Positions 6,931-64,000 of a stretch of DNA of 64,000 nucleotides are shown one piece after another (the stretch's first letter is position 1; each line of letters begins with the position of its first letter). The notes beneath the pieces are model-generated. The model had not been told where the DNA came from, did not search any database, and was given only the letters and a program-made list of their open reading frames with translations. The position numbers and the translations under genes were made by a program. The DNA comes from an uncultured Planctomycetia bacterium (GTDB lineage Bacteria > Omnitrophota > Gorgyraeia > Duberdicusellales > 4484-171). The DNA lies in NCBI GenBank assembly GCA_964635565.1, contig CAZWON010000006.1, positions 10,837 to 74,836 of the forward strand, read 5' to 3'.

Positions 6931-6936
6931 TTTTTA

Positions 6937-39844: not shown

Positions 39845-39890
39845 TTAACGAGTTTAATATGGACAATGAACTAAAAGCTATAAGCTAATT
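39845..39890. repeat. Degenerate copy of the box element (AAGCTATAAGCTAATTTTTATTCC)
   Basis: Lies between the mcsB stop and the clpC start, about 105 nt upstream of the clpC start. Confidence 0.45.
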
Positions 39891-40940
39891 TTTATTCCTT
39901 ACAAGTTTCTCTCTAATAACAGACGCCCTTATATAATCTCTATCTTCTTCCTTTAACACCTTACCTTCTAATTTCTGAAGATGTGCAGGTTGAATAATAA
40001 CAAAGAGATTATTAATAACACTTCGAGATATGTCCTTAATTATACCTAAATCTACTCCTATGCACAACATAGAAAGATGGGAAAATGCTTCCTTTGTAGA
40101 AATAAGACGACAATTTCTTAAAATACCCAGAGAACGCCAGGTGCTGTCTTCAAAAGTACGACGATATTTCTTTAACAAACTATTCCTTGCTGTTAGCTCA
40201 TGTTCTCTTACCTGATGCACCACACCTTTTAAACTATCAATAATCTCCTCTTCACTAAATCCCAATGTAGCTTGGTTGGAAACCTGAAAGAAATTGCCTA
40301 AAGCTTGTGTCCCTTCTCCAAACAGCCCTCTAGTAGTAAATGATAACTTTGCTAAAAGCTCTAAAATCTTATCTATCTGTTTAGTTAAAACTAATCCCGG
40401 CAGATGTAACATACACGAGGCTCTTAGACCCGTCCCTAAATTTGTAGGACAAGCGGTAAGATATCCAATCTCAGGAGAAAAAGAAAAACATAAATACTTT
40501 GATAATTCATCATCAAGCTGATTAATAAAGCTCCACGCTTTCTGTAAATCAAAACCGGAAAATATAACCTGCAACCTTAAGTGGTCCTCCTCATTAATCA
40601 TCACAGAAAAATCTTCCGAAACCGAAAGAATCAATGCTTTCCCCCGCTGTGAACGTGTATGCTCCTGGCTTATAAGGTGTCTTTCTAATAAAAATTGTTT
40701 ATCTAAGCTACTTAATGTTCCCATTTTAATAAAAGAAGCTTGACGCATTGCATCTATCTTTGTTGTTGCCTCTCTAACTTTACTTATGATCTCCTCCTTA
40801 TAAGAAAGACTGGCTTTCCAGGGAAAAGGGTAATTCTGGATATTCCGTGCCACTCTTATCCTTGTAGAAATTACAATATCCGAATGAGGACCTTCAGCGT
40901 TTAACCATCCTCTTTTGTTCTCTAAAAGCTCCTCAAACAT
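39885..40940 (-). CDS. mcsB: Protein-arginine kinase (ATP:guanido phosphotransferase)
   Basis: Phosphagen-kinase C-terminal domain blocks (CPTNLGTGLRAS). Operon position between mcsA and clpC. Confidence 0.85.
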   Translation of the reverse strand: MFEELLENKRGWLNAEGPHSDIVISTRIRVARNIQNYPFPWKASLSYKEEIISKVREATTKIDAMRQASFIKMGTLSSLDKQFLLERHLISQEHTRSQRGKALILSVSEDFSVMINEEDHLRLQVIFSGFDLQKAWSFINQLDDELSKYLCFSFSPEIGYLTACPTNLGTGLRASCMLHLPGLVLTKQIDKILELLAKLSFTTRGLFGEGTQALGNFFQVSNQATLGFSEEEIIDSLKGVVHQVREHELTARNSLLKKYRRTFEDSTWRSLGILRNCRLISTKEAFSHLSMLCIGVDLGIIKDISRSVINNLFVIIQPAHLQKLEGKVLKEEDRDYIRASVIREKLVRNKN

Positions 40941-46049: not shown

Positions 46050-46607
46050 TTAGGGGAAAGATATCTTTACAATGGTTAAACGAGAAATGGCAATAGGCGA
46101 GTTTTCTTCTTTAGGACTTATATTTAATTTCTCTACAGTTAAAATTTCTTTTGCTGACTCTATCCGATAAAGAAAACTTATTATTTTAGGCATATCTCCT
46201 TCGCAATTTAAATCTACATAGTATTTAATAATATTGTTTTCCTTCTTGATAGCAGAGGGTCTTATGTTAAGAAGATTAACCGAAGATTTGCGGGCAAAGT
46301 CTTCTATCAATTTTAGAAGACGATTCATCTCTTCATCATCGGAACCTGCTTTTTTTAAATAGGCACTGTAGTAGGAAGATTCTTTATTTATCTTCTCCTT
46401 TAAAGAAAGAAAACGTAAATCTTTCTGGATAATAAGTCTTTCCTTATCTATCTTTTCATCTAAGGATTCTATCTTCATAAAGGCGGGAGAAATCAACAAT
46501 CTGTCGAGAAAAGCCAAGAACACAAATACAATACTGCAATAGAATACAATCCTTTCTCTTTTAGATAATTTCTCTATAATAGCAGTTAACTGACCTATAT
46601 TAAACAT
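46050..46607 (-). CDS. GspM / PilO-like inner-membrane assembly protein
   Basis: Single N-terminal TM plus periplasmic domain. Last gene of the Gsp/Pil cluster. Confidence 0.5.
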   Translation of the reverse strand: MFNIGQLTAIIEKLSKRERIVFYCSIVFVFLAFLDRLLISPAFMKIESLDEKIDKERLIIQKDLRFLSLKEKINKESSYYSAYLKKAGSDDEEMNRLLKLIEDFARKSSVNLLNIRPSAIKKENNIIKYYVDLNCEGDMPKIISFLYRIESAKEILTVEKLNISPKEENSPIAISRLTIVKISFP

Positions 46608-48087
46608 TACTTTGAGTGGTCATTTTTAATTTAATTCCTACCTCAAAATCAGCAACTTCCTTATCTTCTTCTTTTCTTTTTGAAGTATAGCGCATTTTAA
46701 CTTCTTTAAATAAATCATCTTTACTTAAGTCTTCCACAAAAGAATAAATCGTAGTCATTGAGTCTGCAGTCCCTTTTATAGACAAAGAACTTGTTTCTCT
46801 GGTAAATCTAATATCGCTTATCGTTATAGCGGGAGAAAGATTTTTATAAATTCTATATATGATCTCTAAAGAATATCCTCTCTGGATAAGAAAGCGTTTT
46901 ATAAGCTGAGTGGTGCGGAATTTACTTTCTAAGGCATTGGCTTCTTTATGGATAACTTGAGAACGTTCTTTAAGCTTATCTAAATATATACTTCTAAATA
47001 CTATCTTACTGGCGACTAATATAAAAATAACTACTATAATGGAAAAAGAAAAAAATCCCATCCAGATTATCTGGCGACTTCTTTCCTCAAATGCTCTTTT
47101 GAGTTTAATCTCTTCGGGAAAGAGATTGATTTCTGTATTTTTATTCTCAAAAGAAGAAGCAATCACATCTAAGAACAAAGAAGGATTCACAGTAGAAAAC
47201 ATTTTTTTTACCTTTTCCCTTAAAACCAGATAATCTATAAAAGAAACACTTTCTGTAGTAATACCTATTGTATTATTCAGAAAAGGAGTTAAACCTTTAT
47301 ATTTTGTTGTAGGCATAAGAAGAAGAATCCTCTGAGGAACTGCTTCTATATCCTCGCTTCTATATACATCCAGAGATTTCTTTATTTCCTCTACAAATTG
47401 AGTAACATATCGTGTATAGTCCTCCTCGAGATGACGGTTTCCTATAGGAATACTCCGAGCAAAAACAGAATTTCCTCCAAAAACAATATTAAAATAACTG
47501 AAAGAACTATCAAGGTACAAAAAACCTGTAGGAAAATCGTCATTACTCAACTTAAATACTTCGGAAATAAATCTACCTGTGGTCTCCTGAGCAAAACATA
47601 TTTTTTTTATCTCTATTGCTGTCTTATTAATGATATTCATCTGCCTTCTTATAACCTCCCGCGTAACAATTACCAAAAGAACTTTGGTGTAATTTGCACG
47701 GTAAACCCCCATAATCTTATAATCAATAATGATTTCTTCTCGTGCATAGGGAGTATGACGAGCGGCCTGTAGATTCATAATATCAGCGATTTCCTTAGGA
47801 TCCTGGGAAGGAATCTCAATATTTTTGGTAATAGCCAGATGAGTGGGAATAACTAATACTATATTGGAATTCCTTAATTTTGTATCCTTAAAAAAAATTT
47901 TTATCTTCTCTGCTACATCATCATCAGTAAGCCCTCCCAAATCATAACCATATATATCCAAAACTTCACGATGGAATCTTTTTTGTTTAATATGAGCGAT
48001 TCTTAAGCCTCCTCCTCCAATCTGGATACTTATAGCATCCTTACTTTCTCCAAGAATAAAAGCATCTTTAAAATTATCTCCTAACAT
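46600..48087 (-). CDS. GspL-like protein (PilM actin-like ATPase fold fused to a PilN-like TM/periplasmic part)
   Basis: N-terminal PilM-like domain. One TM (IIWMGFFSFSIIVVIFILVA). C-terminal PilN/GspL periplasmic region. Confidence 0.6.
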   Translation of the reverse strand: MLGDNFKDAFILGESKDAISIQIGGGGLRIAHIKQKRFHREVLDIYGYDLGGLTDDDVAEKIKIFFKDTKLRNSNIVLVIPTHLAITKNIEIPSQDPKEIADIMNLQAARHTPYAREEIIIDYKIMGVYRANYTKVLLVIVTREVIRRQMNIINKTAIEIKKICFAQETTGRFISEVFKLSNDDFPTGFLYLDSSFSYFNIVFGGNSVFARSIPIGNRHLEEDYTRYVTQFVEEIKKSLDVYRSEDIEAVPQRILLLMPTTKYKGLTPFLNNTIGITTESVSFIDYLVLREKVKKMFSTVNPSLFLDVIASSFENKNTEINLFPEEIKLKRAFEERSRQIIWMGFFSFSIIVVIFILVASKIVFRSIYLDKLKERSQVIHKEANALESKFRTTQLIKRFLIQRGYSLEIIYRIYKNLSPAITISDIRFTRETSSLSIKGTADSMTTIYSFVEDLSKDDLFKEVKMRYTSKRKEEDKEVADFEVGIKLKMTTQSNV

Positions 48088-49119
48088 TTATTGCTCCCGC
48101 CAGAATAAAATATTTCCCTCTCGGCTCACTATACATTCTATAATCTCTTTAGCCTTTGAGTAACTAAGACTTGCTTCACTATTAATACTGAAATAATCTG
48201 AAGAAACGCCAATAAATCCTTTAGCCACAATATTACTTAAATTTTGCACTTCGCTTATAGAAAGGGAATAGTGCTGGCTTAAAGAAGGTACTACAGAAGT
48301 AGATGAAACAAAAATATTATCGTCCTCTGTCCCCAATTCACTATCTTCTCCCTTACGATAAGTAACTATCTTATCTATAACTGTATCCGTTATTCCAATT
48401 GCGGACAAAACTTCTTCTGAAGCTGTATTAATATTAACAGCCTTATCTCCATAGATAGTAATAAAATCCTTTATTTTATTAAATATATCAAAAGTTATTC
48501 CTTTTACCAGAAGTAACTCATCTAAACTCTCATAATCATCATCTTTACAATCATAAGGCTCACTGAGATTCCTATAATAGCTATCTTCAGCGCTACCCTG
48601 AGGAATCAAAAGATTACTATCCTTGTCTCTAAAATCAATTATAGAAGCAGCAAATTCTTTAGCCTCACTTTCACTTACATTAAGAACTATTTCAAACAAT
48701 CTTTCTATAATCTTCATATCTACTTTGTTTATGTTTATTTTTCTTGCCTCATCGACTACACCAAACATCGTTCTTATTGTACCATCTTGGGGGTAATTAT
48801 AAAATACATTAAATCTTCCTAAACCAATTTTTATATCCTTAAATTCTTCCTTTTTAGAAGCCCACACATCCAAAAAACTATCTATCCTGCTACTGTCATC
48901 TTTTGATATTGCCAAAATAGCTTTATTAACACCTGCCAAAGCAATAAGATGAAGAACATCCCTTTCTCCCAATCTTTTCACAAAAAGTGCCTTCTGCCTT
49001 GCTCCTCTCCCTAAATATAAACTAAAGATAGAAAGTAAAATTAAAACCCATAAAGCAAAGACTAAAATCATTCCCTTTTGATATTCCTTAATCATTTTGT
49101 ATCCAATCTTTAACTTCAC
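48088..49119 (-). CDS. gspK: GspK-like minor pseudopilin
   Basis: N-terminal hydrophobic segment MILVFALWVLILLSIFSL typical of GspK. Length 343 aa. Confidence 0.55.
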   Translation of the reverse strand: MKLKIGYKMIKEYQKGMILVFALWVLILLSIFSLYLGRGARQKALFVKRLGERDVLHLIALAGVNKAILAISKDDSSRIDSFLDVWASKKEEFKDIKIGLGRFNVFYNYPQDGTIRTMFGVVDEARKININKVDMKIIERLFEIVLNVSESEAKEFAASIIDFRDKDSNLLIPQGSAEDSYYRNLSEPYDCKDDDYESLDELLLVKGITFDIFNKIKDFITIYGDKAVNINTASEEVLSAIGITDTVIDKIVTYRKGEDSELGTEDDNIFVSSTSVVPSLSQHYSLSISEVQNLSNIVAKGFIGVSSDYFSINSEASLSYSKAKEIIECIVSREGNILFWREQ

Positions 49120-49711
49120 CTAAAGGTATATTAACCACTCTTTGATAATTAAAGGTACTATTTTTATAACGTAATGATATATATAGACTTACAGATAAAG
49201 GGATATCCTTTGTGTTCCATTCTTCTTTCCAAAAATATTTTTTTTCCTTAAGGTTATAAGAATAATAATTTATCCTAAAATCATCAATATTATTTAAAAG
49301 CAATTGTGTTGTCCCTTCTTTCTCGCGATAAATATCATTTAAATTTTTTAGAACTCTAAATATTTTCTTATTTTTTTTATCCCAATAGTATGTAACTTCT
49401 CCTATACCTTTACTTAAACCAGGAAACTGACTATTTTTTTTTATAAAGGTAGCAAAACTTACTTTTATTTTACTGCCCCTAAAATCTATAGAATTATACT
49501 TAACGGTATTCCTTAAATCGTAAGAAAATTTCTCAAAAAATATTGCTACATCCTCATCACTACTTTCTTTATAAACTCTCTGCCATATTTTTAAGCCACT
49601 ACTAAAAGTAGCAAGTAAAGTAAGTCCTACCACCGAAAATATACCTGCTACAATTACTGCTTCTATAAGAGTAAAATTATTTTTATTAAAAAATCTTCTT
49701 TTTTTCTCCAT
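49088..49711 (-). CDS. Minor pseudopilin (GspJ-like), prepilin-type N-terminus
   Basis: FTLIEAVIVAGIFSVVGL prepilin helix. The residue before Phe is Asn rather than Gly. Confidence 0.55.
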   Translation of the reverse strand: MEKKRRFFNKNNFTLIEAVIVAGIFSVVGLTLLATFSSGLKIWQRVYKESSDEDVAIFFEKFSYDLRNTVKYNSIDFRGSKIKVSFATFIKKNSQFPGLSKGIGEVTYYWDKKNKKIFRVLKNLNDIYREKEGTTQLLLNNIDDFRINYYSYNLKEKKYFWKEEWNTKDIPLSVSLYISLRYKNSTFNYQRVVNIPLGEVKDWIQND

Positions 49712-49722
49712 AAAATATTTCT

Positions 49723-50220
49723 TTACTCCTTCTTAAAATAAATATAAGTAGCGCGCACTAATTCTATATTTCTCTTACTCTCTCTCCATTTAACTTTTAA
49801 TGTTATTCTGTACATATCTATCTTATCTGTTCCTTCAGAAAAAGAATACGAAAGGTCCCATAAGAATTTTTTATTATATACATCAAAATATCCTCTGGTC
49901 TGGGGAAAAAGAGGAGCTTTATATCGCTTTAAATCATTTTCAATGCTCTCTATTTTATTATCCATCCACAGTTGGGCATATATATAATGTTGAGCATATG
50001 AAGAAACATTAAGGGAGGTAAAAAAACTTTCGTATATAAAAAGGATTCCTGTAACAAGAATAACTACTGCAACAATAAGCTCAACAAGAGTAAAGTAAGC
50101 CTTCCAAACTCTTTTTTTACCAAGAAAGTTATTGCAAGGAGAGATTTCATTATTTATATCTAATATGGAAATAATTTCTTTATTCCCAATTGGTAATATC
50201 GTCTTCGCTTTCTTTACCAT
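49723..50220 (-). CDS. Minor pseudopilin (GspI/H-like), prepilin-type helix. The 5' end is uncertain.
   Basis: FTLVELIVAVVILVTGILF with Glu at +5. The called ORF has a 41-aa leader and overlaps gspG by 41 nt. Confidence 0.5.
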   Translation of the reverse strand: MVKKAKTILPIGNKEIISILDINNEISPCNNFLGKKRVWKAYFTLVELIVAVVILVTGILFIYESFFTSLNVSSYAQHYIYAQLWMDNKIESIENDLKRYKAPLFPQTRGYFDVYNKKFLWDLSYSFSEGTDKIDMYRITLKVKWRESKRNIELVRATYIYFKKE

Positions 50221-50617
50221 CTCTTCCTAAAGAATACAAATCATAATCAGGTTTATGCCTTCCTGGAGAAACATACCGATATTTTCTCCCCCACGGATCA
50301 AGGGGTTCCTTTTCTAAATAAGGACCATTCCAGTTTGGTGCCCCTGAAGGTTTCTTCAAAAGAGCTTCTAAGCCCTCATCAGTAGTAGGAAAAACTCCAT
50401 TATCCAGCTCATAAAGCTTAAGAGCAGTAGCGATATTAACCTGAATATCTGCTTTAGCAGCTGCTCTTCTTGCCTGTTCTCCTCTTCCTGCAAGACGAGG
50501 AAACACCATTGCTACTAATGCACCAATAATAATAACTACAAGCATAAGCTCAATAAGGGTAAATCCTTTAGATACAATAATTTTCTGGCCAATATATCTT
50601 ATCTTCATTATTAACAC
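50180..50617 (-). CDS. gspG: Type II secretion major pseudopilin GspG
   Basis: KG|FTLIELMLVVIIIGAL prepilin site. GspG C-terminal signature DPWGRKYRYVSPGRHKPDYDLYSLGRDGKESEDDITNW. Confidence 0.85.
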   Translation of the reverse strand: MLIMKIRYIGQKIIVSKGFTLIELMLVVIIIGALVAMVFPRLAGRGEQARRAAAKADIQVNIATALKLYELDNGVFPTTDEGLEALLKKPSGAPNWNGPYLEKEPLDPWGRKYRYVSPGRHKPDYDLYSLGRDGKESEDDITNWE

Positions 50618-50629
50618 CTCCTTAAATCT

Positions 50630-51478
50630 TTAATCTTTACGATAGTATTTTTTCCATTCTCTCTCTAAATCCTCGATAGTATTAAAATAGTTTGCGTAAG
50701 AAGTGCGCAATGCCTCCTCTATGCTTTTACCATCACGTAACTGACGACAAAAATCTGTAAATCTCTTATTCCCATATTTCTCAATTAGGAAGCCTACCAG
50801 TGATACTGCCTCTAAATAGTAAAGATTAATAAGGTTTTTGCCTGTCATAATAAGAACTAAGGGAATACCGTTATCATTGGTATAACGGACATATATTTTA
50901 TCAGTAGACTTTATATTTCTTATGTCCATTTTCATCATATCACGCAGAGAAAGCAATGTTTTCTTTCTAAATGTATCATTTATTATATCCTCTATTGCGT
51001 CTCTCTTTGATTTTTCTTCCCACTGGGCAATTCCTTCATCAAGCCACAGAGGGATAAAGCTTGTAAACCCTACGAAATCTCTAAACATAAGGTGAGTAAT
51101 CTCATGAGGTAAAATGGAATCAAGGAATCCTTTACCCCTAAAATAACCCATAATTATCTTTTTGGTATAATCCGCCATACCATGAGACCAGTTAGGCATA
51201 TTACTTGCTTTAAGATAAGATTGGTGACTGGGATAGATGTATATCCTTACTCTTTTATCCCACAGCCAGAACTTCGAATAACGTTCATAACCTAAATCCC
51301 GGGCAATATCTATATAATATTTTTCTGCACAGGAGAGAACTTCTTGAGCAAAGGATAAATGCTGAGGATAATAATACACGATAAAATGTGTTCCTTTAAG
51401 TCGAGAAAAATCATCCTCTGCAAAAAGGAGAGAGTTAAAACTTAAAAAGAAAAGAATAAAAACTATTATCCTCTTCAT
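50630..51478 (-). CDS. Secreted peptidase-MA-like zinc metalloprotease
   Basis: Signal peptide. HEITH followed by WLDEGIAQW, which matches the Peptidase_MA_2 pattern HExxH ... W.xEG.A. Confidence 0.55.
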   Translation of the reverse strand: MKRIIVFILFFLSFNSLLFAEDDFSRLKGTHFIVYYYPQHLSFAQEVLSCAEKYYIDIARDLGYERYSKFWLWDKRVRIYIYPSHQSYLKASNMPNWSHGMADYTKKIIMGYFRGKGFLDSILPHEITHLMFRDFVGFTSFIPLWLDEGIAQWEEKSKRDAIEDIINDTFRKKTLLSLRDMMKMDIRNIKSTDKIYVRYTNDNGIPLVLIMTGKNLINLYYLEAVSLVGFLIEKYGNKRFTDFCRQLRDGKSIEEALRTSYANYFNTIEDLEREWKKYYRKD

Positions 51479-52687
51479 TTATCTAACCATAATATTTATT
51501 TGAAAAATAGGAAGGAGCATTGCCAGCACAATAAAACCTACAATTGAACCTATAAAAAGAATCATTATGGGTTCTAAAACAGTAGTGAAAACCTTTGTTC
51601 CTTCTTCTAATTCTTCCTCATAAATTGTGGCTAATTCTCCTAATGTCTCGTCCAACCTGCCTGATTCTTCTCCAATAGAAATCAAACTCGTAACAAAAGG
51701 AGGAAACATTTTTGACTGCCCCAAAGATGTTCCCAGCGATGCGCCATCTTCTAACTCTTTTATACTTTTCAAAAACTCACTCTTTATAACCTCATTATTC
51801 AAGATAGGAATGACAAGATTTAACCCTCTTAGTATAGGGATTCCACTTTTTATTAGAATTTCTAAGGTCCTACTTAAAAGGGCTATATCCTTTTTAAAAA
51901 CAAAATCTTTTAATACAGGAATACGTAACTTTAAAATACTTAAAAAAACCCTAACCTCTTTTCTCTTTCTCTGCCGAAGATAAATAAGAAGAAATACACA
52001 TAAAGAAATTACTATAAGGGGCCATTTTTCTTTTAGGAGAGTACTTAAAGAAATTAGAATACGTGTAGGTAAAGGAAGTTGGGAACCTAATTCAGAAAAA
52101 ATATTCATAAGGCGAGGGACCACAAAAGAAAGCATAAATATCACTGTTCCCACCCCTACTAATAACATGATTATAGGATAAACCAAAGCAATTTTTACTT
52201 TAGAAAATATATCTGCTTGCTTCTGACGATAATTTGCAATCCTTAATAAAACCTCCTCTAATTTACCACTATCCTCTCCTGCTTTTACCATAGAAGTATA
52301 AAAATTAGAAAATACCATAGGAAATTTGGCTAATGCAGAAGAGAAACTCTGGCCTTCTTTTATCTCGGAATGCAATTTTAGAACAACTCTCTTAAAATAA
52401 CTATTTTGCATCTGGTGAGAAATTATTTCCAAAGCTCTTAGGATAGGAACCCCTGCTTTAATAAGAATAGCTATCTGTCTCGTAAATACTGTAATTGTGC
52501 GAAAACTTACCCTTTTAAATAAAACTCTTTTAGAAGGAATATCTTTAAGAACTTTTTCTTCTAATCTTACAGGAAAATATCCCATTTCTTCTATTTTCTT
52601 AAGTGCTGATTCTTTGTTAGATGCTTCTATTTCTCCTTCAACTACTGTCTGGGGGTCAGTTTTTGCACGATAATAATAGATAGCCAT
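51479..52687 (-). CDS. gspF: Type II secretion / type IV pilus platform protein GspF/PilC
   Basis: Two GspF repeats. Three TM segments. Length 402 aa. Confidence 0.85.
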   Translation of the reverse strand: MAIYYYRAKTDPQTVVEGEIEASNKESALKKIEEMGYFPVRLEEKVLKDIPSKRVLFKRVSFRTITVFTRQIAILIKAGVPILRALEIISHQMQNSYFKRVVLKLHSEIKEGQSFSSALAKFPMVFSNFYTSMVKAGEDSGKLEEVLLRIANYRQKQADIFSKVKIALVYPIIMLLVGVGTVIFMLSFVVPRLMNIFSELGSQLPLPTRILISLSTLLKEKWPLIVISLCVFLLIYLRQRKRKEVRVFLSILKLRIPVLKDFVFKKDIALLSRTLEILIKSGIPILRGLNLVIPILNNEVIKSEFLKSIKELEDGASLGTSLGQSKMFPPFVTSLISIGEESGRLDETLGELATIYEEELEEGTKVFTTVLEPIMILFIGSIVGFIVLAMLLPIFQINIMVR

Positions 52688-52787: not shown

Positions 52788-54896
52788 TTATTTCTCTTCC
52801 CTAACAAAATAGTTTATTCGTGTTCTTTCACTTCCTGTAAGGTCCAAAAAACAAATACCTATCTCATATCTATCTATTTCCTCAGCAGGTTTAGACCAGA
52901 CAACTTTAGCTAAACATACAATAGGGTCTTTACCATCAGGTAACTCCATATTAACCTCTAAGATTGAACCTATGGGGATTTCTTCAGGAGCAATAAAAGC
53001 AACACCTCCCGCACTGATATTTTTTGTCGTAGTAAATTTATCCCATAAATATCCTTTTTTGGTAAGTTCCTCTTTTGATTTTATAATACGATAAAGAATA
53101 CGAATACGGGCATCTAATCTTTTAAAAGCCCGCTGTTCTAAAAAAATACTGGCTTCTCTTAAAGAAGTCTTTTCTTCATAAAGAAACCTCTTATCTTCAC
53201 TTGATACTACTCTCATAACCTCTTCAGGGGTGGTTATTCCTTCCATAACTTTATACCAACCATCTTGCCTTAAAGTATTCATACCTCTTTGAATAGCAAT
53301 CTTTTTTATTTCCTCTGAAGGAGCTCTTTCTATTACTAAATTTCTAATTACCTCGTCCATTAAAAGAATCTCATATATACCTGTTCTACCCAGATAACCC
53401 GTAAAATTGCATTTCTCACAGCCTCTACCTTTAAAAATTCTTAACTCTTCTGGTGAGGTTAATGACAAATCTTGTGCAATTTGGTTTTTAAGTTCAACGG
53501 ATAACTCTTTATCGTCCTCTTTACAATGAGGACAAATTACTCGCACCAATCTCTGAGCAATGAACGCTTCAATACTTGAGGAAACAAGATAAGGTTCTAT
53601 CCCAACATCAATTAACCTAGCTACCCCACTAGCAGAATCTTTAGTATGAAGAGTAGAAAACACCAAATGGCCTGTTAAAGCCATTCTTATGGCAATCTCT
53701 GCGGTCTCTAAGTCGCGTACCTCTCCTACCATAATAATATCAGGATCATGCCTTAAAATACTACGTAACCCACGGGCAAAATCTAAACCTATATCTGGCG
53801 CTACTTGTATCTGAGTAATACCTTTGAGTTCATATTCAATGGGGTCCTCAATAGTAATAATCTTTCTATCGCGGGTATTAAGTTTGCTTAAGCAAGCATA
53901 AAGAGTTGTGGTCTTACCACTTCCTGTAGGGCCAGTAATAAAAATAATACCGTTGGGTTTTGAGATGAGTCTCTCTACAATCTTTAAATCATTATCAGAA
54001 AACCCTAATCTTTCTAAACTGAAAAGCATTTTTGTAGGAAGAATTCTAATCACCATGCTTTCTCCATAAGGAGTAGGAAGGGTAGAAATTCTTAAATCTA
54101 AATTCTGCTCCCGCGTCTTAACTATTGTACGACCATCCTGAGGAAGCCGTTTTTCTACAATATTGAGATTGCACATTATTTTTATACGGGAAATAATGGG
54201 TAGAATAAATTTCTTTACTTCTTTAGAAATATTGGCATCGTACAATACTCCATCAATACGATAACGAATAGAAACCTCTCCTCGGTAAGGTTCAATATGA
54301 ATATCGGTAGCTCTTCTTTTATAAGCTTCAAATATTATCTGATTAACTAACTTCATTATAGAAGCATCTTCGGCTAACTCTTCTATATCTTCTATTTCTT
54401 TTACCGTAAAATCTTTCGGTTTGGTAGAGAGAGAAATTTTATCCACGGTATCTGCTCCTAAACCATAATGACGTTTTAAACTCTCATAAATATCCTCCTC
54501 TAAGGAAAGTTTCATTTCTATATTACATCCCAAGTGAATCATCAACTCATCCTGGGTCTTTATATTAAAAGGATAGGCAACTGCGATAACTAAAGTATTG
54601 TTTTTCTTAAGTTGCAAAGGGAAAAAGTGATAATAAAAAGCAATGCGTGCCGATACTTTCTTTAATGCTTCTTTATCTAAAGAGAGATTATTCAAATCCA
54701 CTACTTCTAAAGCTAATTCTTCAGCTAAAGCATTTAAAGCTGTTTTTTTATCAACGATTCCTTTTTTAGAAATAGCCAAGATAAAACTTTCTTTAGTAGA
54801 TGCTATTTCTTTCGCAACCTCCTCTGCCACTTCAGAAGAAATTACTCCTCTTTTAACAAGAATGCTCTTAATTTGTGTATCATATCTTCCTGCCAT
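52788..54896 (-). CDS. gspE: Type II secretion ATPase GspE with a C-terminal PilZ domain
   Basis: T2SSE_N N-terminal domain. Walker A GPTGSGKTT. Tetracysteine CPHC ... CEKC. The C-terminal ~125 aa carry PilZ motifs RAFKR (RxxxR) and NISAGG (D/NxSxGG). Confidence 0.85.
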   Translation of the reverse strand: MAGRYDTQIKSILVKRGVISSEVAEEVAKEIASTKESFILAISKKGIVDKKTALNALAEELALEVVDLNNLSLDKEALKKVSARIAFYYHFFPLQLKKNNTLVIAVAYPFNIKTQDELMIHLGCNIEMKLSLEEDIYESLKRHYGLGADTVDKISLSTKPKDFTVKEIEDIEELAEDASIMKLVNQIIFEAYKRRATDIHIEPYRGEVSIRYRIDGVLYDANISKEVKKFILPIISRIKIMCNLNIVEKRLPQDGRTIVKTREQNLDLRISTLPTPYGESMVIRILPTKMLFSLERLGFSDNDLKIVERLISKPNGIIFITGPTGSGKTTTLYACLSKLNTRDRKIITIEDPIEYELKGITQIQVAPDIGLDFARGLRSILRHDPDIIMVGEVRDLETAEIAIRMALTGHLVFSTLHTKDSASGVARLIDVGIEPYLVSSSIEAFIAQRLVRVICPHCKEDDKELSVELKNQIAQDLSLTSPEELRIFKGRGCEKCNFTGYLGRTGIYEILLMDEVIRNLVIERAPSEEIKKIAIQRGMNTLRQDGWYKVMEGITTPEEVMRVVSSEDKRFLYEEKTSLREASIFLEQRAFKRLDARIRILYRIIKSKEELTKKGYLWDKFTTTKNISAGGVAFIAPEEIPIGSILEVNMELPDGKDPIVCLAKVVWSKPAEEIDRYEIGICFLDLTGSERTRINYFVREEK

Positions 54897-54946: not shown

Positions 54947-55579
54947 TCACCGCCTCCTACTTCCTGCCTTATTCTTTCTTATCCAATTAAGCAGAGCTTC
55001 TGCATAATCATCTCTACCAAGAGCTCTTAAACGTTTTACTTCTTTTAGGGCACTTGCCTTATCTCCACTATTAAAATAGGCTCCTCCTAAAGCTACATAA
55101 GCATTAAAATAATCGGGCTTAAGCATTGTGCATTTCTTCAATGACTGAACCGCTTTATTATAATCTTTCATACTCATATAAACAAGACCTAAATGATAAT
55201 ATAACAAGGGATTTTTTGGCTGAATAATTCTTGCTTTCATAAAATATCTGATTGCTTCTTCATAATCTTTTTTAGAAGCGAAAATTAACGCTAAGTTATA
55301 ATAAGCACTAAAACTTTTAGGATTAAGTTTTATAACTTTCTTATAACAACTAATTGCTTTGTTATAATCTTTTTTTAGCCCGTAAATAAGCCCTAACTGT
55401 AAATAAGCAATACTATGGGAAGGGTCAATTTTTATAATTTCTTTATATTCTCTTATAGCAGAATCATAATCCTGTTTTTTAACATAAGCATTAGCCTTTT
55501 CGAACCTATCAGCAATCTCGCCGCAAAAAGCATTAAATGAGAATAAAAATATTAGTAAAAATAAATTTATTAACTTCAT
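54947..55579 (-). CDS. TPR-repeat protein with signal peptide (PilF/PilW-like candidate)
   Basis: Signal peptide ending FNAFC. Five to six TPR units (AIREYKEIIKIDPSHSIAYLQLGLIY and so on). Directly upstream of gspE. Confidence 0.65.
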   Translation of the reverse strand: MKLINLFLLIFLFSFNAFCGEIADRFEKANAYVKKQDYDSAIREYKEIIKIDPSHSIAYLQLGLIYGLKKDYNKAISCYKKVIKLNPKSFSAYYNLALIFASKKDYEEAIRYFMKARIIQPKNPLLYYHLGLVYMSMKDYNKAVQSLKKCTMLKPDYFNAYVALGGAYFNSGDKASALKEVKRLRALGRDDYAEALLNWIRKNKAGSRRR

Positions 55580-55606: not shown

Positions 55607-57013
<1,407 letters not shown>

Positions 57014-57027
57014 TTAATAACCAATTT

Positions 57028-57090
57028 ATAGCTTATGGTTTTTTAGTAGAAACTAAAAAGTTAAACCATAAGCTAAATTTTATTTGCTAT
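57028..57090. repeat. 13-bp perfect hairpin (TAGCTTATGGTTT / AAACCATAAGCTA) plus box element between atpG and atpD
   Basis: Arms at 57029..57041 and 57063..57075. Followed by aattttatttgctatttact, which is shared with 60590..60612. Confidence 0.7.
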
Positions 57091-57104
57091 TTACTACAAG
57101 TATT

Positions 57105-57959
57105 TTACTTCTGTGCTTTCCGCTCAAAAATCATTCTTGCTGCAAATAATTCTCTCATACTTCTATCGGTTAATTCATGACGGAGACGAAAATATTTATA
57201 TTTCAGTTTCTCATCCAGTTCTTCAATTTTATGAGTGCAATCTTCTAAATGCATAAATCGAGCAGCAAACTCAGCCAATCTACTCATCATAAGAATTTCA
57301 TATATTCTTTTTACTATCCAGAGATAAATTAAATATTCCACTACTTGCTCTATATAAGACTCCCAAACAAATCCATAAATATCTATTTGTTTGTTACCCT
57401 CTTTAAGGTGACCACAAGGTAGAAGGGTTTCTATCTCTACTCGCTGAACAGCTAAAGAGTACGCTTTAGGATAAATTATCTTAACTTTACCTATACTACC
57501 TTTTATCACTTCTTTTAATATATAACTCTGAAGAGCTACTGCCTGTTCACCAACATAGTCTTCTTTAATTCCTTCCATATATACACAATTTATCCCTCTT
57601 TCTCGCACATAGATTCTTCCTCTCTCTCCTACAACAATAAGCCTTCCTTTCTGTTTTGATAGCTCAATAAATGCTTTATTTATTACCTGCATATTAAGTC
57701 CCCCTAAAAGCCCTGCGTCAGAAGTGATAGCAATAACTCCTAAAAGGTTGCTTGAAGGTGTAATAAAGGGATGGGATATATCTTTTAAATCTATACTGCC
57801 AAGAAATTCTTCTACTACCCGAGAAAACTTCTCAAAAGGATGAACTTTTCCTTCAAAAGCATAAAATTGAGAAATGGCGATCCCTTTAAGAACTTTAAGA
57901 AGCTCGGCTAACCCTTTGTAGAAATCCCTATCCCTTTTTACATCAGAAATAAAAGCCAT
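57105..57959 (-). CDS. atpG: F-type ATP synthase gamma subunit (divergent)
   Basis: Length 284 aa. C-terminal helix LAEFAARFMHLEDCTHKIEEL aligns with the gamma EHAARMxAM block. Sits between alpha and beta. Confidence 0.7.
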   Translation of the reverse strand: MAFISDVKRDRDFYKGLAELLKVLKGIAISQFYAFEGKVHPFEKFSRVVEEFLGSIDLKDISHPFITPSSNLLGVIAITSDAGLLGGLNMQVINKAFIELSKQKGRLIVVGERGRIYVRERGINCVYMEGIKEDYVGEQAVALQSYILKEVIKGSIGKVKIIYPKAYSLAVQRVEIETLLPCGHLKEGNKQIDIYGFVWESYIEQVVEYLIYLWIVKRIYEILMMSRLAEFAARFMHLEDCTHKIEELDEKLKYKYFRLRHELTDRSMRELFAARMIFERKAQK

Positions 57960-57973
57960 TTATTATTATTTAC

Positions 57974-59461
57974 CTAACCCTTCTTACTAAAATACTTCTG
58001 TAAGAAAGAATATAATACTTCCTGAATTTTATCAGTAACAATCTTCTGTTCTCGTAATCTAGAAATAACTTCAGGATATTCTTTCCTAAGAGCATACAGA
58101 CAATACTGCTTAAAATCCCTGATTTCTGAAGAAGAAAGATTATCCAGTATTCCCAAACTTAAGGCATAAAGATAAATTATCTGCTCCTCAATCTCAATAG
58201 GAGCATTTTTAGGCTGGATAAGAAGATGAGTTATTATTTCTCCTCTTTTTAAAGAACGTTCCGCCTCTTTAGAAAGACTGGTAGCACGTAGCTGTGTCAT
58301 CTGAAGAAGCTCTTTGTACTGAAGATACCCCAAACGCAAGTTTCTACTTAAAGCTTTCATTGCTGGCCATTGTGCTTTACTGCCAATACGGGAGACAGAA
58401 AGACCTAAATCAATTGCTGGTCTAAATCCTTTATTAAAGAGTGAGGTGCTAAAATATATTTGGCCATCGGTCATAGAAATAATATTTGTAGAAATATATC
58501 CGGTGACATCCCCATGTTGAATCTCTACAATAGGGAAAAAAGTCATTGAACCCCCTCCTAATTCAGGGCGAAGTTGACCTGCTCTTTCCATAAGTTGAGA
58601 ATGAATATAGAAAATGTCTCCCGGATAAGCTTCTCTACCTGGCGCTCTTCCTAAGAGCAAAGATATCTGCCTGTAGACCCAGGCATGACGGGTCAAATCA
58701 TCAAAAACAACAAGAACATCTTTTCCTTTATGCATAAAATATTCTCCCAGCATGCAAGCGGTATAAGGAGCAAGGTATTGTTCTCCTGCTGAAGTAGAAG
58801 CAACACCGCTTACTACAATTGTATAGGAAATAGCATCTTTTTCTTTTAGAATATCCAGAATCTTAACTAAATTAGAATAAGGTTTGCCAATGCAACAATA
58901 TATACACACTACATTTTTACCTTTCTGATTAAGAATAGTATCTATAGCTACGGTGGTTTTACCTGTTAATCTATCTCCAATAAGTAGCTGGCGCTGGCCT
59001 TTACCAATGGGGATAGTAGCATCTATGGTAAGTATTCCTGTTTCAAGAGTTCTATCTACAGGAACCCTATCTAATACCCCAGGTGCATCTCTAAAAACAG
59101 GATATAATCTATCTGTTTTAATCTCTCCCAACCCGTCCTGAGGCTGACAAAGACTGTCTACTACTCTACCTAAGAAAGCTTCTCCCACAGGAAGCGATAG
59201 AAACTGACCTTTATTATAAACCTCTTCTCCTGCTTTTATATCTACAGCAGAACCTAAAACAAGAATCTGAACTTCATCTTCAACAAATCCAATGACTATG
59301 CCTTTAAGACCATTAAAAAATTCAACCATCTGACCATTAACACAACTAGGTATACCACGAGCAAAAACAATAAATTTCTGGACTGATTTTATAGTCCCTA
59401 CTTCACGAATATCTACAGAATAATTAATATTTTGGTTTAAGTTATTTATCCCTTCTTCCAT
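57974..59461 (-). CDS. atpA: F-type ATP synthase alpha subunit
   Basis: P-loop GDRLTGKTTVAIDTILNQ. Blocks LAPYTACMLGEYF, YRQISLLLGRAPGREAYPGD. Confidence 0.9.
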   Translation of the reverse strand: MEEGINNLNQNINYSVDIREVGTIKSVQKFIVFARGIPSCVNGQMVEFFNGLKGIVIGFVEDEVQILVLGSAVDIKAGEEVYNKGQFLSLPVGEAFLGRVVDSLCQPQDGLGEIKTDRLYPVFRDAPGVLDRVPVDRTLETGILTIDATIPIGKGQRQLLIGDRLTGKTTVAIDTILNQKGKNVVCIYCCIGKPYSNLVKILDILKEKDAISYTIVVSGVASTSAGEQYLAPYTACMLGEYFMHKGKDVLVVFDDLTRHAWVYRQISLLLGRAPGREAYPGDIFYIHSQLMERAGQLRPELGGGSMTFFPIVEIQHGDVTGYISTNIISMTDGQIYFSTSLFNKGFRPAIDLGLSVSRIGSKAQWPAMKALSRNLRLGYLQYKELLQMTQLRATSLSKEAERSLKRGEIITHLLIQPKNAPIEIEEQIIYLYALSLGILDNLSSSEIRDFKQYCLYALRKEYPEVISRLREQKIVTDKIQEVLYSFLQKYFSKKG

Positions 59462-59467
59462 TATTAT

Positions 59468-60193
59468 TTAAACTTCATTTATTAGCTGGCGTGCTCCTTC
59501 CTTTATCTTCCACTTCAAACTAGCATCAATTACTAAACTTCCTATATTAATTAATAAACCAGACAATAAAGAAACGTCTTTTTCCTTTATAAACTCTATG
59601 TTCTTGCCTATTTTTTCCTTTAACTTAGAAGAAATAACATCAAACTTACTATCATCAAGGTCAAAAGCGCTTTTTATTACTGCAAAGGAGGCATCTACAT
59701 TTTGAGAAATGCTCAATTTATCAATCCCTGCATGAATAAATTCATCCACTAAATGATTATGTAATATTAAACGGACCTCTTGGCTAAGTGCTTTATCCAA
59801 TAAACTAACTGCTTCCTCTATTGCCTTTTCTTTGATTTTTCTTTCCATTTCCAAAATAAGATTCTGGCGAGCTTTTTCTGCCTGTTTTATCATTTCTTCA
59901 CTTTCCTGGCGGGCCTTCTCAATAATCTTCTCTTTCTGGGCGTTAGCTGATTGCTGAATTGCTTGCTTAATCTTTTCTGCTTCTTCTTTTGCTTCAGAAA
60001 TTTTCTTCTGATACATCTGGTTTATCTCATCTAAACGTTTATCTACCTCTTCCTGTTTTTTCATGTAATCTCTGGTAAGAACATCTAAATGCTGTGTAGC
60101 AGAAGTTATGTTTTTGGATAAAACTTTTTTAAGCAAGAATACAAGAAAAGCAAATATAATAACCTGAAATACTATTAAAACTACAAGCAACAT
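59468..60193 (-). CDS. atpF: F-type ATP synthase subunit b fused to a delta (OSCP) C-terminal-domain-like region
   Basis: N-terminal TM and charged coiled coil (b-like). The C-terminal approximately 100 aa (DVSLLSGLLINIGSLVIDASLKWKI) resemble the delta C-terminal domain. No separate delta gene is present. Confidence 0.6.
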   Translation of the reverse strand: MLLVVLIVFQVIIFAFLVFLLKKVLSKNITSATQHLDVLTRDYMKKQEEVDKRLDEINQMYQKKISEAKEEAEKIKQAIQQSANAQKEKIIEKARQESEEMIKQAEKARQNLILEMERKIKEKAIEEAVSLLDKALSQEVRLILHNHLVDEFIHAGIDKLSISQNVDASFAVIKSAFDLDDSKFDVISSKLKEKIGKNIEFIKEKDVSLLSGLLINIGSLVIDASLKWKIKEGARQLINEV

Positions 60194-60922: not shown

Positions 60923-61726
60923 TTATTCTTTAATATCGGTAGATTCGGAAGACTCTTCTTCCCCAAAAGAAATTTTTTTTGCTTCTGAAATTATATCATG
61001 AGTTGCCCGGGAAGAACGGTACCAAGTAAAGAAAAACACCAAAGAAAGTAACCCAATAAAAATAATAATGGAAAAAATTACTATCCAAGTAGCAGTTTTT
61101 GTAGGCGAGAGAGTTTTAAACTTACTCTCAGCAAGAATATCAGGAGTAAGAGGACCAGTCTTTGTCTCTAAAAGTTTCTCCATGTCGCTAATCTCATCTT
61201 TAAGGCGGGAAAGGCTCTTAATATTGGCACGATACACACCAATATGCTGAGAACGACTTATGGTATCATCGCTCTGGGATTTTATTATTTCCGCAATGAG
61301 AGAATTGGCACGCTCAGAAAGTTTCTTCACTTCATCATAATGGGAAGAGCCTTTAAATGATACTAAAAGTTTATCAATCCTTCTCTTTACTCCTTCTATT
61401 TCTTCAGAAGGAATGAGCCAGATATCCTCTATTTCTACTTCAAAAATTTTCGTCTGGCGGGGCTTTAATATTACTCCATTATCATATACATAATAGAGAG
61501 ATTTCTGGGAATCAAAATCTAACTTAAGCCCTCCTAAGTCTATAATGTTTTTGGGCTTTACCTCCTCAGGTAAATAAACTTTTACCGGTACAAACTGGGT
61601 TTTTACAGAGGAAGGATTTATGGCAACAATTCGAAAACGGATATTATCACCCCAGCAAAAAAAAGGAAATAATATCCCTATTATAAATAAAATATTAAGC
61701 ATTTTTTTTTGAAAAGAAAAAAACAT
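60923..61726 (-). CDS. Hypothetical membrane-anchored protein (signal peptide plus C-terminal TM)
   Basis: N-terminal hydrophobic leader. C-terminal TM WIVIFSIIIFIGLLSLVFFF followed by an acidic tail. No recognisable family. Confidence 0.45.
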   Translation of the reverse strand: MFFSFQKKMLNILFIIGILFPFFCWGDNIRFRIVAINPSSVKTQFVPVKVYLPEEVKPKNIIDLGGLKLDFDSQKSLYYVYDNGVILKPRQTKIFEVEIEDIWLIPSEEIEGVKRRIDKLLVSFKGSSHYDEVKKLSERANSLIAEIIKSQSDDTISRSQHIGVYRANIKSLSRLKDEISDMEKLLETKTGPLTPDILAESKFKTLSPTKTATWIVIFSIIIFIGLLSLVFFFTWYRSSRATHDIISEAKKISFGEEESSESTDIKE

Positions 61727-61826: not shown

Positions 61827-64000
61827 CTACTGTAAAACTGTTGAAACAATGGGTGCGTCCATGCCACCGAATTTAGCCTCAAACAGAGCCTGAAGAATTC
61901 TTAAAACACCCTCTATAGTATCTGTTTTCTTCCTAATTGCCTTAATTGTAGGGGACTCACTGAGTTTCTCTTCAAGTATCTCACTAATATCATAACCCTG
62001 ACCAGCTGCTAACTCAGTTAATTTATCTGTAATCTCGTTTAAAGTGCTAGTAACTATAGGGCTTGCTCCTTGGTTTGCAATAATCGAAGGAAGTTCTTCT
62101 ACAGATTCCTGTAAATTCTTTAAAGTAATTGCAATACTTACTCCGTCTTCGCTTCCAATAGTAGCTTCTAATGCTTTTACTAAATCTAAAGTTTTCTTAG
62201 CAGCTCGTTCAGCCTCAGGAGCAGCAGAGGCTAACCCTGCAATAGTAGTTATAGACATTTCCTCTACTGAACCAGAACCTGTAACTAATCCTCCAGTAGT
62301 CTGTTCACTAACAGTATAGGTATAAGCCTTTCCAGGGGTAAAGCGTGTATCTGCATTAAATTCAAAAATATATAAACCAGGAGTTGTCTCCGTCATTACC
62401 CAATCCTTTACAATAGATTGGTTATCCCAACTGTATATATTCACCATAGGATAAAGTCCGCTGGGTCCTTGAACCTGCAAAGTAATGGCTTCTCCGCTTA
62501 AAGCAGGATTAGGTGATACTGTTGCTTTCCAAGAATATTTCTTAGCTGTTGCTTCTAATTCCTCACCTGCAGCTACTGCCTGTTCCGCACCTGCTTGGAG
62601 TTGCTCAATAGCCTCTGTGGTGCGTTCTTCAAAACTTGTTAAGGTTTCATCTACAGCGCTAACCATTTCATCGGTCTTTGTCTCAATAATAGTTTTTTGC
62701 TCTTCCATCTTCTGGTCAATAAGGTCAGTCTGGTCTTGTAGTGTCTGTTGTATTTCTGCATTCACCTCTGATATAGGTTTATCCAAAACTGCATTTACAG
62801 TATCCTGAACATCCTGTAATTTTGTTTCCGCAGTAATAGTAAAGGAATCTGGCGTTTTAAAGTGGGCACCACTGGCATTAGTAATATCTGTAATAGTTGT
62901 ATATACTTTCCCTGCAATAAGAGTTGTAGGATTCCATATAGAACTAAAGAAACCTGCAGGATCAGGGCTTGTATCAACTAAATGGGCAATTTCTTGTTCA
63001 GTTTCTGGGTCATAGATATATACATCTGCCTGAATACCACCACTTACTACAAATCCATCTCGTTCAAGCCAGCTACTTACACTGAGAGTATCTGTCGTTG
63101 GGTCGTAGGCAAAATCAGAGTAAGCCCGCCAAATATGGATAGCTGTTGTTTCCATAAAAATAGTCTCGTTCTCTGTCCCTACTAAAGGCTCATCTCTATC
63201 CAAAAGGAAACTAATCTGCTTATCACCATAACCAGTCTTTGACCACACGAGCGTCCAGAAACCATAAGGAAGCTCAACAGTACAAGGTGAACCTAAAGGT
63301 GCGCCAGGATTACCTGGCATCTCTGAGGTCTGCCAAACATCCCCTTTATCGGAAGAGCCATCAACGGTAAGTTGAGATAAGTTCTCATTAGTTAAAAGAT
63401 CCCTTATGTTAAAAGTCACAGAATAATAGTCTATAATAAAGTTATCATCGGAGGTATCGTTAACAGTAACATCACGAATATCAGAAACTCTCACCTTTAC
63501 AGTGGTTGAACGATCATCAGGAATTGTCCAAGCATAAGAATTAGGGGAAATCGTATTATCATAGGAAGAAACAATAGTATGAAGATCGGTATTAAAATTA
63601 TCTTTAGAATACTCAATATTTACTAAAGGAATTGAACCTTGTGTAGTTTCCCACGTAATATTGTGTTCTTCTCTTGTAACCCACCGTTCTCCACCATTAG
63701 GAGAAGTAATATGTAAGATTCCTCTCACAATAGAACAATCACTATCAGAGGCATCAAAAGCATCAGAATCAGTTGCACTCATCACTCTTACTCTAATTGT
63801 CTCAATCCTACTCTCTCCTTGAGGAGGAGCATTAGGAACTTTCCAGATATAACTTCCTGTATTAGGGGTTGAAGAAACAATGGCATAATCAAAAGTCAAT
63901 CCACTATCTTTAGAATAATCTAATCTTACATTATCTACGGTTCCTACACAACTCCAACTAACTGTGTAATCCTCACCTACAGTAAGTTCTTCTCCGCCAT
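61827..64000 (-). CDS. Large Ser/Thr/Asp-rich surface or secreted repeat protein, 5'-truncated by the window edge
   Basis: The track start at 63899 is a TTG. Own reading shows the frame stays open to 64000. Repeated YSKD..T.....N.....Y.W.IP units. A central Q/E-rich coiled-coil segment. Confidence 0.5.
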   Translation of the reverse strand, partial: GGEELTVGEDYTVSWSCVGTVDNVRLDYSKDSGLTFDYAIVSSTPNTGSYIWKVPNAPPQGESRIETIRVRVMSATDSDAFDASDSDCSIVRGILHITSPNGGERWVTREEHNITWETTQGSIPLVNIEYSKDNFNTDLHTIVSSYDNTISPNSYAWTIPDDRSTTVKVRVSDIRDVTVNDTSDDNFIIDYYSVTFNIRDLLTNENLSQLTVDGSSDKGDVWQTSEMPGNPGAPLGSPCTVELPYGFWTLVWSKTGYGDKQISFLLDRDEPLVGTENETIFMETTAIHIWRAYSDFAYDPTTDTLSVSSWLERDGFVVSGGIQADVYIYDPETEQEIAHLVDTSPDPAGFFSSIWNPTTLIAGKVYTTITDITNASGAHFKTPDSFTITAETKLQDVQDTVNAVLDKPISEVNAEIQQTLQDQTDLIDQKMEEQKTIIETKTDEMVSAVDETLTSFEERTTEAIEQLQAGAEQAVAAGEELEATAKKYSWKATVSPNPALSGEAITLQVQGPSGLYPMVNIYSWDNQSIVKDWVMTETTPGLYIFEFNADTRFTPGKAYTYTVSEQTTGGLVTGSGSVEEMSITTIAGLASAAPEAERAAKKTLDLVKALEATIGSEDGVSIAITLKNLQESVEELPSIIANQGASPIVTSTLNEITDKLTELAAGQGYDISEILEEKLSESPTIKAIRKKTDTIEGVLRILQALFEAKFGGMDAPIVSTVLQ

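Follow-up and report, generated by a model that had tools for sequence, protein, structure and literature searches.

An exported gluzincin metallopeptidase in the type IV filament operon of Omnitrophota and its sister group in the dcw cluster

Gene X encodes an exported zinc metallopeptidase and lies between a gspF-like platform gene and the major pseudopilin gene gspG on a 64,000-nucleotide stretch of DNA (the window; contig CAZWON010000006.1, positions 10,837 to 74,836), deposited under an uncultured Planctomycetia bacterium and placed in the Omnitrophota by its GTDB lineage. X is a fixed component of an Omnitrophota operon for a type IV filament machine akin to a type II secretion system (T2SS), and it is found there phylum-wide. 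A sister gene, X', occupies a fixed position in the division and cell-wall (dcw) gene cluster, so that X and X' are two context-specific orthologous groups of a phylum-specific peptidase with one shared active site. We are highly confident in this descriptive part, which comprises the gene, its motif, fold class and export signal, the continuity of the operon, the synteny and the two context-specific groups. With regard to function, we tentatively favor the reading that X is an endopeptidase that serves the filament machine alone and remodels the envelope from the periplasm, with peptidoglycan as a possible substrate.

Sequence, export signal and fold of X

X occupies positions 50630-51478 of the minus strand and is an open reading frame (ORF) of 282 amino acids with an ATG start. 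A preliminary description of the locus had reported a signal-peptide protein at exactly this ORF, carrying a HEITH ... WLDEG pattern and resembling Peptidase_MA_2, and all three points are borne out: the N-terminus has a Sec layout, both motifs are present in the translation (LPHEITHLMF and PLWLDEGIAQWEE), and a hidden Markov model scan against Pfam assigns X to Peptidase_MA_2 (PF13485) with 62.4 bits (E = 6.6e-17), well over the family's gathering cut-off of 32.4. The same family is assigned by precomputed annotation to all 120 homologues among the matches listed. Peptidase_M1 reaches 25.6 bits in Pfam, under its cut-off of 27.7. No NCBIfam model fits X; the sole match was to flagellinolysin, an identity that was dismissed at 16 bits against a cut-off of 205.

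The HEITH segment (51092-51106) represents the HExxH zinc-binding and catalytic motif, formed by H125, E126 and H129 as judged from sequence and invariance. E148 in WLDEG (51035-51037) is the predicted third zinc ligand, at the HExxH-x18-E spacing found in M1 gluzincins. H125, E126, H129, E148 and Y221 are invariant in an alignment of 36 close relatives (36/36) and in all family members from fetched loci (167/167), and the HExxH motif of X is therefore not fortuitous. Judged by these residues, X is a Sec-exported, catalytically intact gluzincin zinc peptidase. The same invariance, which spans two paralogue groups, bears on the idea that X could be a structural or adaptor subunit that retains a protease fold without cutting, for example as a stand-in for GspC or GspH. 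Such a substitution would suit an operon from which GspC, GspH and GspD are absent; however, beyond its conserved catalytic residues, X has neither a GspC-type transmembrane anchor nor a GspH-type prepilin motif, which makes an adaptor function highly improbable.

The signal peptide comprises residues 1-20 (MKRIIVFILFFLSFNSLLFA; 51419-51478), with predicted cleavage before EDD. It has a cleavable Sec layout with a basic n-region, a hydrophobic h-region and an A at position -1. Read from the sequence, the N-terminus contains neither a lipobox nor the prepilin motif, in which the cleaved Gly is followed by FTLxE. A Sec-type layout is found in 100 of 106 operon-linked and 48 of 49 dcw-linked relatives, mostly without a lipobox, where signal peptides of X and its relatives were judged by a hydrophobicity heuristic and not by SignalP. 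An identity of X as GspH or another type IV (pseudo)pilin was considered and ruled out, given that X has a Sec signal ending in LFA before EDD instead of a prepilin Gly leader and FTLxE helix, and no N_methyl or pilin family match was obtained. X was also ruled out as a prepilin peptidase (GspO/PilD, A24): such enzymes are polytopic membrane aspartyl peptidases, whereas the fold of X is that of an exported, soluble metalloprotease, and no A24 match was obtained.

An AlphaFold2 model built on the 36-sequence alignment (mean predicted local distance difference test score 89.8, predicted template modelling score 0.83) shows a single domain of 260 amino acids after the signal peptide. The HExxH motif is located on a helix spanning residues 118-136 and E148 on a helix spanning residues 144-153, and the model has the two lobes of a thermolysin-like gluzincin fold. 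It resembles the catalytic domains of M9 collagenases and M1 aminopeptidases, with Foldseek in agreement, and its nearest solved folds are proteases acting on proteins or peptides, namely collagenases, aminopeptidases, M30 and M60 enzymes. In a profile search against the PDB, only the HExxH...WL(N/D)EG segment aligns with M1 enzymes, E148 falling onto the Glu of their NEG motif. Zinc binding and peptidase activity are predicted from the HExxH-x18-E site together with the fold, and X is probably an endopeptidase.

X is classified as a Peptidase_MA_2 gluzincin and not as an M1 or M9 enzyme because it lacks a beta-saddle, an ARM domain, the GxMEN motif and any M9 sequence match. Compared with M1 aminopeptidases (ERAP1, IRAP, aminopeptidase N and LTA4 hydrolase), X not only stays under the Pfam cut-off but carries SHGMADY in place of GxMEN, and both the N-terminal beta-saddle and the C-terminal ARM domain are missing. 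The resemblance to M9 collagenases (ColG, ColH, ColT and the Vibrio enzymes) is structural only, with 13-17% sequence identity and no Pfam or NCBIfam M9 match, and X has no activator domain or collagen-binding modules. X shares with Peptidase_MA_2 a score above the family cut-off, the HExxH motif with a downstream Glu and the thermolysin-like two-lobed fold. However, this family is broad and uncharacterised, whereas the subgroup of X is a tight, Omnitrophota-specific set of exported single-domain proteins of ~260-290 amino acids at fixed genomic positions.

Two conserved genomic positions

When each species was represented by a single genome, a scan with an alignment as the query identified 255 genomes with a relative; this type of scan was required, as a genome scan using X alone as the query returned no confirmed relative. 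Synteny was counted in the best 80 of the 255 loci, almost all of them from Omnitrophota metagenome-assembled genomes (MAGs) or single-amplified genomes, using tblastn with the operon proteins of the window. X is present at the syntenic loci of essentially all relatives examined, and the kept order is (atpD)-gspE-gspF-X-gspG-gspI-gspJ-gspK-pilMN-gspM. X is followed by gspG in 73 of the 76 loci with enough downstream sequence, at a distance of 400 nt or less in 68. On the other side, gspF is found directly upstream of X in 48 of 67 loci and 0.4-6.8 kb upstream in 10, while 9 loci have no gspF within 7 kb. The genes inserted between gspF and X encode receiver domains, PAS/GAF/CHASE4/Cache histidine kinases and REC-PilZ proteins. 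Since these inserts are regulators and X stays with the pilins, X heads the pseudopilin block, with regulators slotted in ahead of it. At one locus (L015), gspF precedes X, and neither gspG nor any other ORF was found in the 1.5 kb downstream. Only in two of the best 80 loci (L034 and L043) are all of the operon genes missing from the surroundings of X.

PilZ or regulator inserts between gspF and X were observed at L009, L038, L058, L064, L071 and L073, and a small PilZ gene is located at L168:3067-3504. The MshEN and PilZ domains of GspE together with the regulators beside X suggest that the pseudopilin block may be under cyclic-di-GMP and two-component control.

To avoid the circularity of loci selected by X, a separate look-up was started from three distinct GspG proteins, covering 13 places. 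In all three lineages, a Peptidase_MA_2 gene is located just upstream of gspG wherever the upstream sequence suffices; in one of them, a small PilZ gene lies between the two. These data bear on the most trivial explanation, namely that a housekeeping peptidase came to lie between gspF and gspG by chance. A few family members do occur in unrelated contexts, but the position is kept in nearly all testable loci as well as in the loci selected by GspG, with reading frames overlapping or abutting, so that a fortuitous neighbour is barely credible. We thus regard both a non-catalytic role and a chance neighbourhood as essentially excluded for X.

Median identity to the window proteins across loci is 75% for GspG, 54% for GspE, 51% for X, 48% for GspF, 43% for GspK, 37% for both PilMN and GspM, 33% for GspJ and 32% for GspI, the value for X being somewhat inflated because similarity to X was the basis on which the loci were chosen. 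X is about as conserved as GspE and GspF and clearly not a fast-evolving accessory gene.

The second position emerged from a profile search of 1.84 billion cluster representatives, with 227 clusters reaching E <= 1e-30 and 1193 reaching E <= 1e-10. Proteins of ~260 amino acids that lack residues ~186-214 of X account for many of the matched clusters. One such shorter member (P0152) is encoded in a dcw cluster with the gene order murE-murF-mraY-murD-ftsW-murG-X'-murC-murB-ddl-ftsQ-ftsA. A metagenome scan with an alignment of the short members identified 80 loci, of which ~50 show the arrangement murD-ftsW-murG-X'-murC-murB-ddl and ~25 the filament operon. X' overlaps both of its neighbours in an NCBI MAG, where murG spans 4922-6004, X' 6001-6783 and murC 6776-8140. 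Overlapping stop and start codons characterise the dcw examples, which include L083:7001-7783, L164:6001-6783 and ~49 metagenome loci among L084-L163. Named proteins of the dcw type are annotated as 'peptidase MA family metallohydrolase [Candidatus Omnitrophota bacterium]'. We know of no description of a protease between murG and murC.

Labelling 167 family proteins by their neighbours gave 106 operon-linked, 49 dcw-linked, 11 other and 1 mixed protein. In a neighbour-joining tree, all 49 dcw-linked proteins fall into one clade and all 106 operon-linked proteins into another, with no mixing, and the nearest neighbour has the same context for each of the 155 context-assigned proteins (155/155). 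A bootstrapped two-cluster cut of these 155 proteins separated the groups perfectly in 180 of 200 replicates; the context-assigned set was used because a cut by the unweighted pair group method with arithmetic mean that included the 12 other or mixed proteins was dominated by outliers and gave misleading placements. Identity is ~53% within the groups and ~39% between them. About 50 positions, the complete zinc site among them, are at least 85% conserved and do not differ in residue between the groups, while only 4 are conserved but different.

The segment missing from the shorter proteins is a clade-specific insertion of ~29 residues (residues ~186-214; 50837-50923), modelled as a beta-hairpin with strands at residues 195-202 and 205-212. 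It is found in 84 of 106 operon-linked and in none of 49 dcw-linked proteins, which points to a later acquisition within the operon-linked group. As a mark of that group the hairpin was rejected, with 22 of the 106 operon-linked proteins lacking it.

Family members were also observed in other settings. One peptidase gene lies upstream of gspE (L130:5986-6735) and another ~1.4 kb after gspM (L087:2976-3686); both products are about equally similar to the dcw group and the operon group. L034:3780-4598 is a second copy in the MAG CAIRWO01, whose operon copy is L060, and L043:6842-7849 is situated among radical-SAM and VIT1-like genes. In a MAG labelled Lentisphaerales, the peptidase gene lies beside a rhomboid and an S49 protease (L081/L082:7001-7795), while P0225 follows a MacAB-TolC-like pump; like P0152, these came up in context look-ups of the shorter proteins.

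The filament operon and its surroundings

All operon genes in the window are encoded on the minus strand. The operon is headed by a gene for an exported tetratricopeptide repeat (TPR) protein (54947-55579) that is PilW/Tgl-like by weak matches (TPR families; TIGR02521 at 64.5 bits, under the cut-off). It is followed by genes for a GspE/PilB-type ATPase that carries an N-terminal MshEN domain and ends in a PilZ domain (52788-54896; PF00437 at 439 bits, PF05157, PF07238) and the gspF-like platform protein (51479-52687; PF00482 at 206 bits). On the other side of X, gspG encodes the major pseudopilin of 142 amino acids (50180-50608; TIGR01710 at 146.7 bits against a cut-off of 88.85). Three minor pseudopilin genes come next, the first weakly GspI-like with the prepilin-type N-terminus FTLVE (49723-50220; TIGR01707, E = 6.7e-4, under the cut-off), the second weakly GspJ-like with FTLIE (49088-49711; PF11612 at 25.5 bits, under the gathering cut-off of 28) and the third GspK-like (48088-49119; PF21687 at 49 bits; NF037980 at 79.5 bits, under the cut-off). 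A PilM-PilN fusion, which is a GspL-like assembly platform protein (46600-48087; PF11104, PF05137), and a GspM/PilO-like platform protein (46050-46607; PF10741, PF04350) complete the operon, which is followed by lysS.

The TAA stop of gspF directly abuts the ATG of X (0-nt gap), and the gspG ATG lies 21 nt after the TAA stop of X, with GGAGG ahead of it. No terminator-like site was found on the minus strand from 52687 to 46050. Given these tight junctions and the lack of terminator-like sites between the genes, gspF-X-gspG...gspM can be read as one transcription unit.

The preliminary description had placed X within a pseudopilin/platform operon, in agreement with the GspF and GspG assignments of its two neighbours, but its expectation of a GspH-type gene between gspG and gspF does not hold. 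The canonical gsp operon has the order C-D-E-F-G-H-I-J-K-L-M, with GspH after G and nothing between F and G; here, the gene after gspG is weakly GspI-like and no GspH is detectable. Taken as a T2SS, the operon encodes GspG at the equivalog level; E, F and K can be recognised but score under their equivalog cut-offs, I and J match weakly, and PilMN and PilO-like proteins represent L and M. GspC, GspD, GspH and GspO were not found in the operon or the scanned flanks. Ten relatives were searched downstream of gspM for a secretin, as were the flanks of the window, but nothing beyond housekeeping genes, OEP proteins and a second GspE came up, and no PilT-like second ATPase was found within the window. 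The second GspE/MshEN ATPase gene is located ~1 kb downstream of gspM (L056:12057-13683) and hints at a second filament system at that locus.

An ORF of ~157-160 amino acids without a Pfam match recurs just after gspM at L007, L016, L017, L026-L028, L031, L047, L055, L061, L062, L066-L068 and other loci. It is missing from the window, in which the space between gspM and lysS contains just one ORF of 51 amino acids.

On the minus strand of the window, the filament operon is directly preceded by F1-like ATPase genes (55607-60193), consisting of beta (55607-57001), gamma (57105-57959), alpha (57974-59461) and a b/delta fusion (59468-60193); atpD is adjacent in most relatives. Beyond them lie ORFs at 60923-61726 (267 aa, no Pfam match) and 61827-63899 (690 aa, weak sub-threshold matches only). 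Two further regions of the window are unrelated to X: a protein of 763 amino acids that combines TPR repeats with a GH2-type TIM barrel (592-2883, minus strand), and a ClpC-like AAA+ protein adjoining a McsB-like ATP:guanido phosphotransferase (37338-39767 and 39885-40940, minus strand).

All named homologues of X come from 'Candidatus Omnitrophica/Omnitrophota' and are annotated as hypothetical, the closest named relative being from bin 4484_171. The typical Omnitrophota operon also occurs in MAGs labelled 'uncultured Planctomycetia/Planctomycetales' or 'Margulisiibacteriota', labels that are probably wrong (L001, L002, L010, L012, L013, L014, L015, L024, L036, L044 and L052).

As described by Seymour et al. 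2023, Omnitrophota carry a 'type-4a pilus gene cluster' beside a 'symbiotic' type-2/3 F-type ATPase, and roles in host-cell attachment and in motility on host cells have been proposed for this cluster (PMC10066038). The window contains the same locus type, with F1-like ATPase genes upstream of the filament operon. In that paper, the section on the cluster is silent on the peptidase, and a text search gave no instance of the word 'peptidase'. Two further Omnitrophota papers were likewise searched, and no mention of this peptidase was found; a literature search on Peptidase_MA_2 yielded a single paper, which was irrelevant. A metallopeptidase fixed between gspF and gspG throughout the phylum, together with a dcw twin, thus appears to be undescribed in the literature searched. 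The term 'T2SS-like' is at least as apt as 'type 4a pilus' for this machine because its pilin is a GspG equivalog by NCBIfam.

Possible functions and significance of X

We hypothesize that the operon copy X and the dcw copy X' share the same chemistry and that their substrate would be part of the cell's own envelope, because the sister copy of X sits at the murG-murC junction of the dcw cluster. The most economical substrate would be the peptide part of peptidoglycan (cross-links or stems), both because the dcw genes flanking X' make and insert that polymer and because the wall is a documented obstacle to T2SS assembly; envelope proteins would be the alternative. At the crossing points of the filament machine and its outer-membrane channel, X may then open the wall locally or maintain it, or else trim some component of the envelope.

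Dedicated wall hydrolases are known to serve other trans-envelope machines, among them FlgJ, VirB1, EtgA and TagX of the type VI secretion system. T2SS secretin multimers are blocked by the normal peptidoglycan mesh, and this block is relieved by GspA/GspB or by lower cross-linking (PMC10329019). In Serratia, the peptidoglycan endopeptidase ChiX is reported to be an integral part of another secretion route, that of chitinase secretion (PMC4259817). The role proposed for X is similar to that of all these helpers (GspA/GspB, ChiX, FlgJ, VirB1, EtgA and TagX) in that a machine-encoded factor would let a large assembly cross peptidoglycan. However, none of them is a gluzincin, X fits none of their families, and its wall activity is hypothetical.

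Several observations weigh against a wall substrate. The nearest solved folds of X cleave proteins or peptides, and neither its sequence nor its fold matches the known peptidoglycan peptidase families (M23/LytM, M15, M14, NlpC/P60 and others). Pfam and NCBIfam return no peptidoglycan-hydrolase family, only MA_2 and the weak M1 match, and a viral fold search for endolysin-like relatives found only enhancin-like proteases. To our knowledge, no peptidoglycan peptidase with a gluzincin fold has been reported. The link to the wall is one of guilt by association, being drawn from the neighbours of the paralogue and not from those of X itself. Co-occurrence of the operon and dcw copies in one genome is not established, rare members of the family lie outside both contexts (L034, L043, L081 and P0225), and the selection of loci by similarity to X flatters its apparent conservation. 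Lastly, the machine part that would most need a hole in the wall is not seen, as there is no secretin near the operon. A still more specific proposal would be that the family represents a class of gluzincin-fold peptidoglycan endopeptidases, duplicated into a division copy (murG-X'-murC) and a filament copy (gspF-X-gspG), with the latter acting as a built-in 'hole-maker' that replaces GspA/GspB; in this full form, the idea seems rather unlikely.

The preliminary description had suggested that X is either a dedicated cargo of the secretion system or a pilin-processing factor, and neither role is favored by the evidence gathered here. As a cargo, X would fold in the periplasm, be exported by the T2SS-like machine and digest surface proteins of a host or prey. 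There is no signature in the sequence by which T2SS cargo could be told, the Sec-type signal alone being visible; X has such a signal with no membrane anchor and no lipobox. The proximity of its fold to extracellular proteases (M9 collagenases, M30 and M60) and the NCBI annotation of the major pilin as GspG, a secretion-type pseudopilin, also suit a cargo. Cargo genes may lie beside their own T2SS, as in the case of StcE with etp, SslE/YghJ with gsp-beta and PulA with pul, and the StcE/etp and SslE-YghJ/gsp-beta systems resemble X in that a Sec-signal zinc metalloprotease is genetically linked to T2SS genes. However, these two cargo proteases flank their operons and are large, lineage-specific multidomain mucinases (M66 and M60), whereas X is small, located between gspF and gspG, distributed phylum-wide and accompanied by a dcw paralogue. 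In addition, X is located inside the operon, flanked by platform and pilin genes, and not at its edge. Conservation at the level of the ATPase and platform protein, above that of the minor pseudopilins, would be unusual for a host-directed effector, and a sister group in the dcw cluster with nearly the same conserved residues would make no sense for a prey-directed enzyme. No secretin was seen in or near the operon. On the other hand, Omnitrophota are presumed to live as predators or parasites and to employ the pilus locus in contact with the host (PMC10066038), a lifestyle with which a cargo function would agree. Overall, we consider a cargo function possible but doubtful.

Alternatively, X could be a maturation or turnover protease that trims or degrades pseudopilins or other periplasmic parts of the machine, for instance by removing mis-assembled subunits or by dismantling the pseudopilus at a locus without a retraction ATPase. 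X always accompanies the pseudopilin block, even when regulators part it from gspF, and the window has no PilT-like second ATPase. An origin of the hairpin insertion solely within the operon-linked group would be in keeping with a newly acquired contact between proteins. Conversely, we are aware of no precedent for a periplasmic metalloprotease that processes type IV pilins, whose leader is cleaved at the cytoplasmic face by A24 aspartyl peptidases. Contact between X and a pilin is purely hypothetical, and the dcw paralogue, with the same active-site residues and no pilins nearby, would be left unexplained. A turnover function is therefore unlikely.

T2SS and type IV pili are among the best-studied envelope nanomachines, yet their conserved parts are not known to include an exported metalloprotease. 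In the present case, such an enzyme is fixed in the filament operon throughout a phylum whose members are ultra-small and probably depend on hosts. The Pfam family, although uncharacterised, the kind of machine and the locus type were already known; what appears to be new is that X is fixed between gspF and gspG and that it has a dcw twin. If X does cut the wall, it would represent a new fold class for peptidoglycan peptidases and a direct genetic answer to the question of how the wall is crossed without GspA/GspB. Should X instead be a cargo or act on pilins, it would still be the first protease among the conserved components of a locus for which a role in host attachment of Omnitrophota has been proposed. 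In both cases, X offers a small, soluble and easily expressed handle for studying the surface machinery of an uncultured phylum in vitro.

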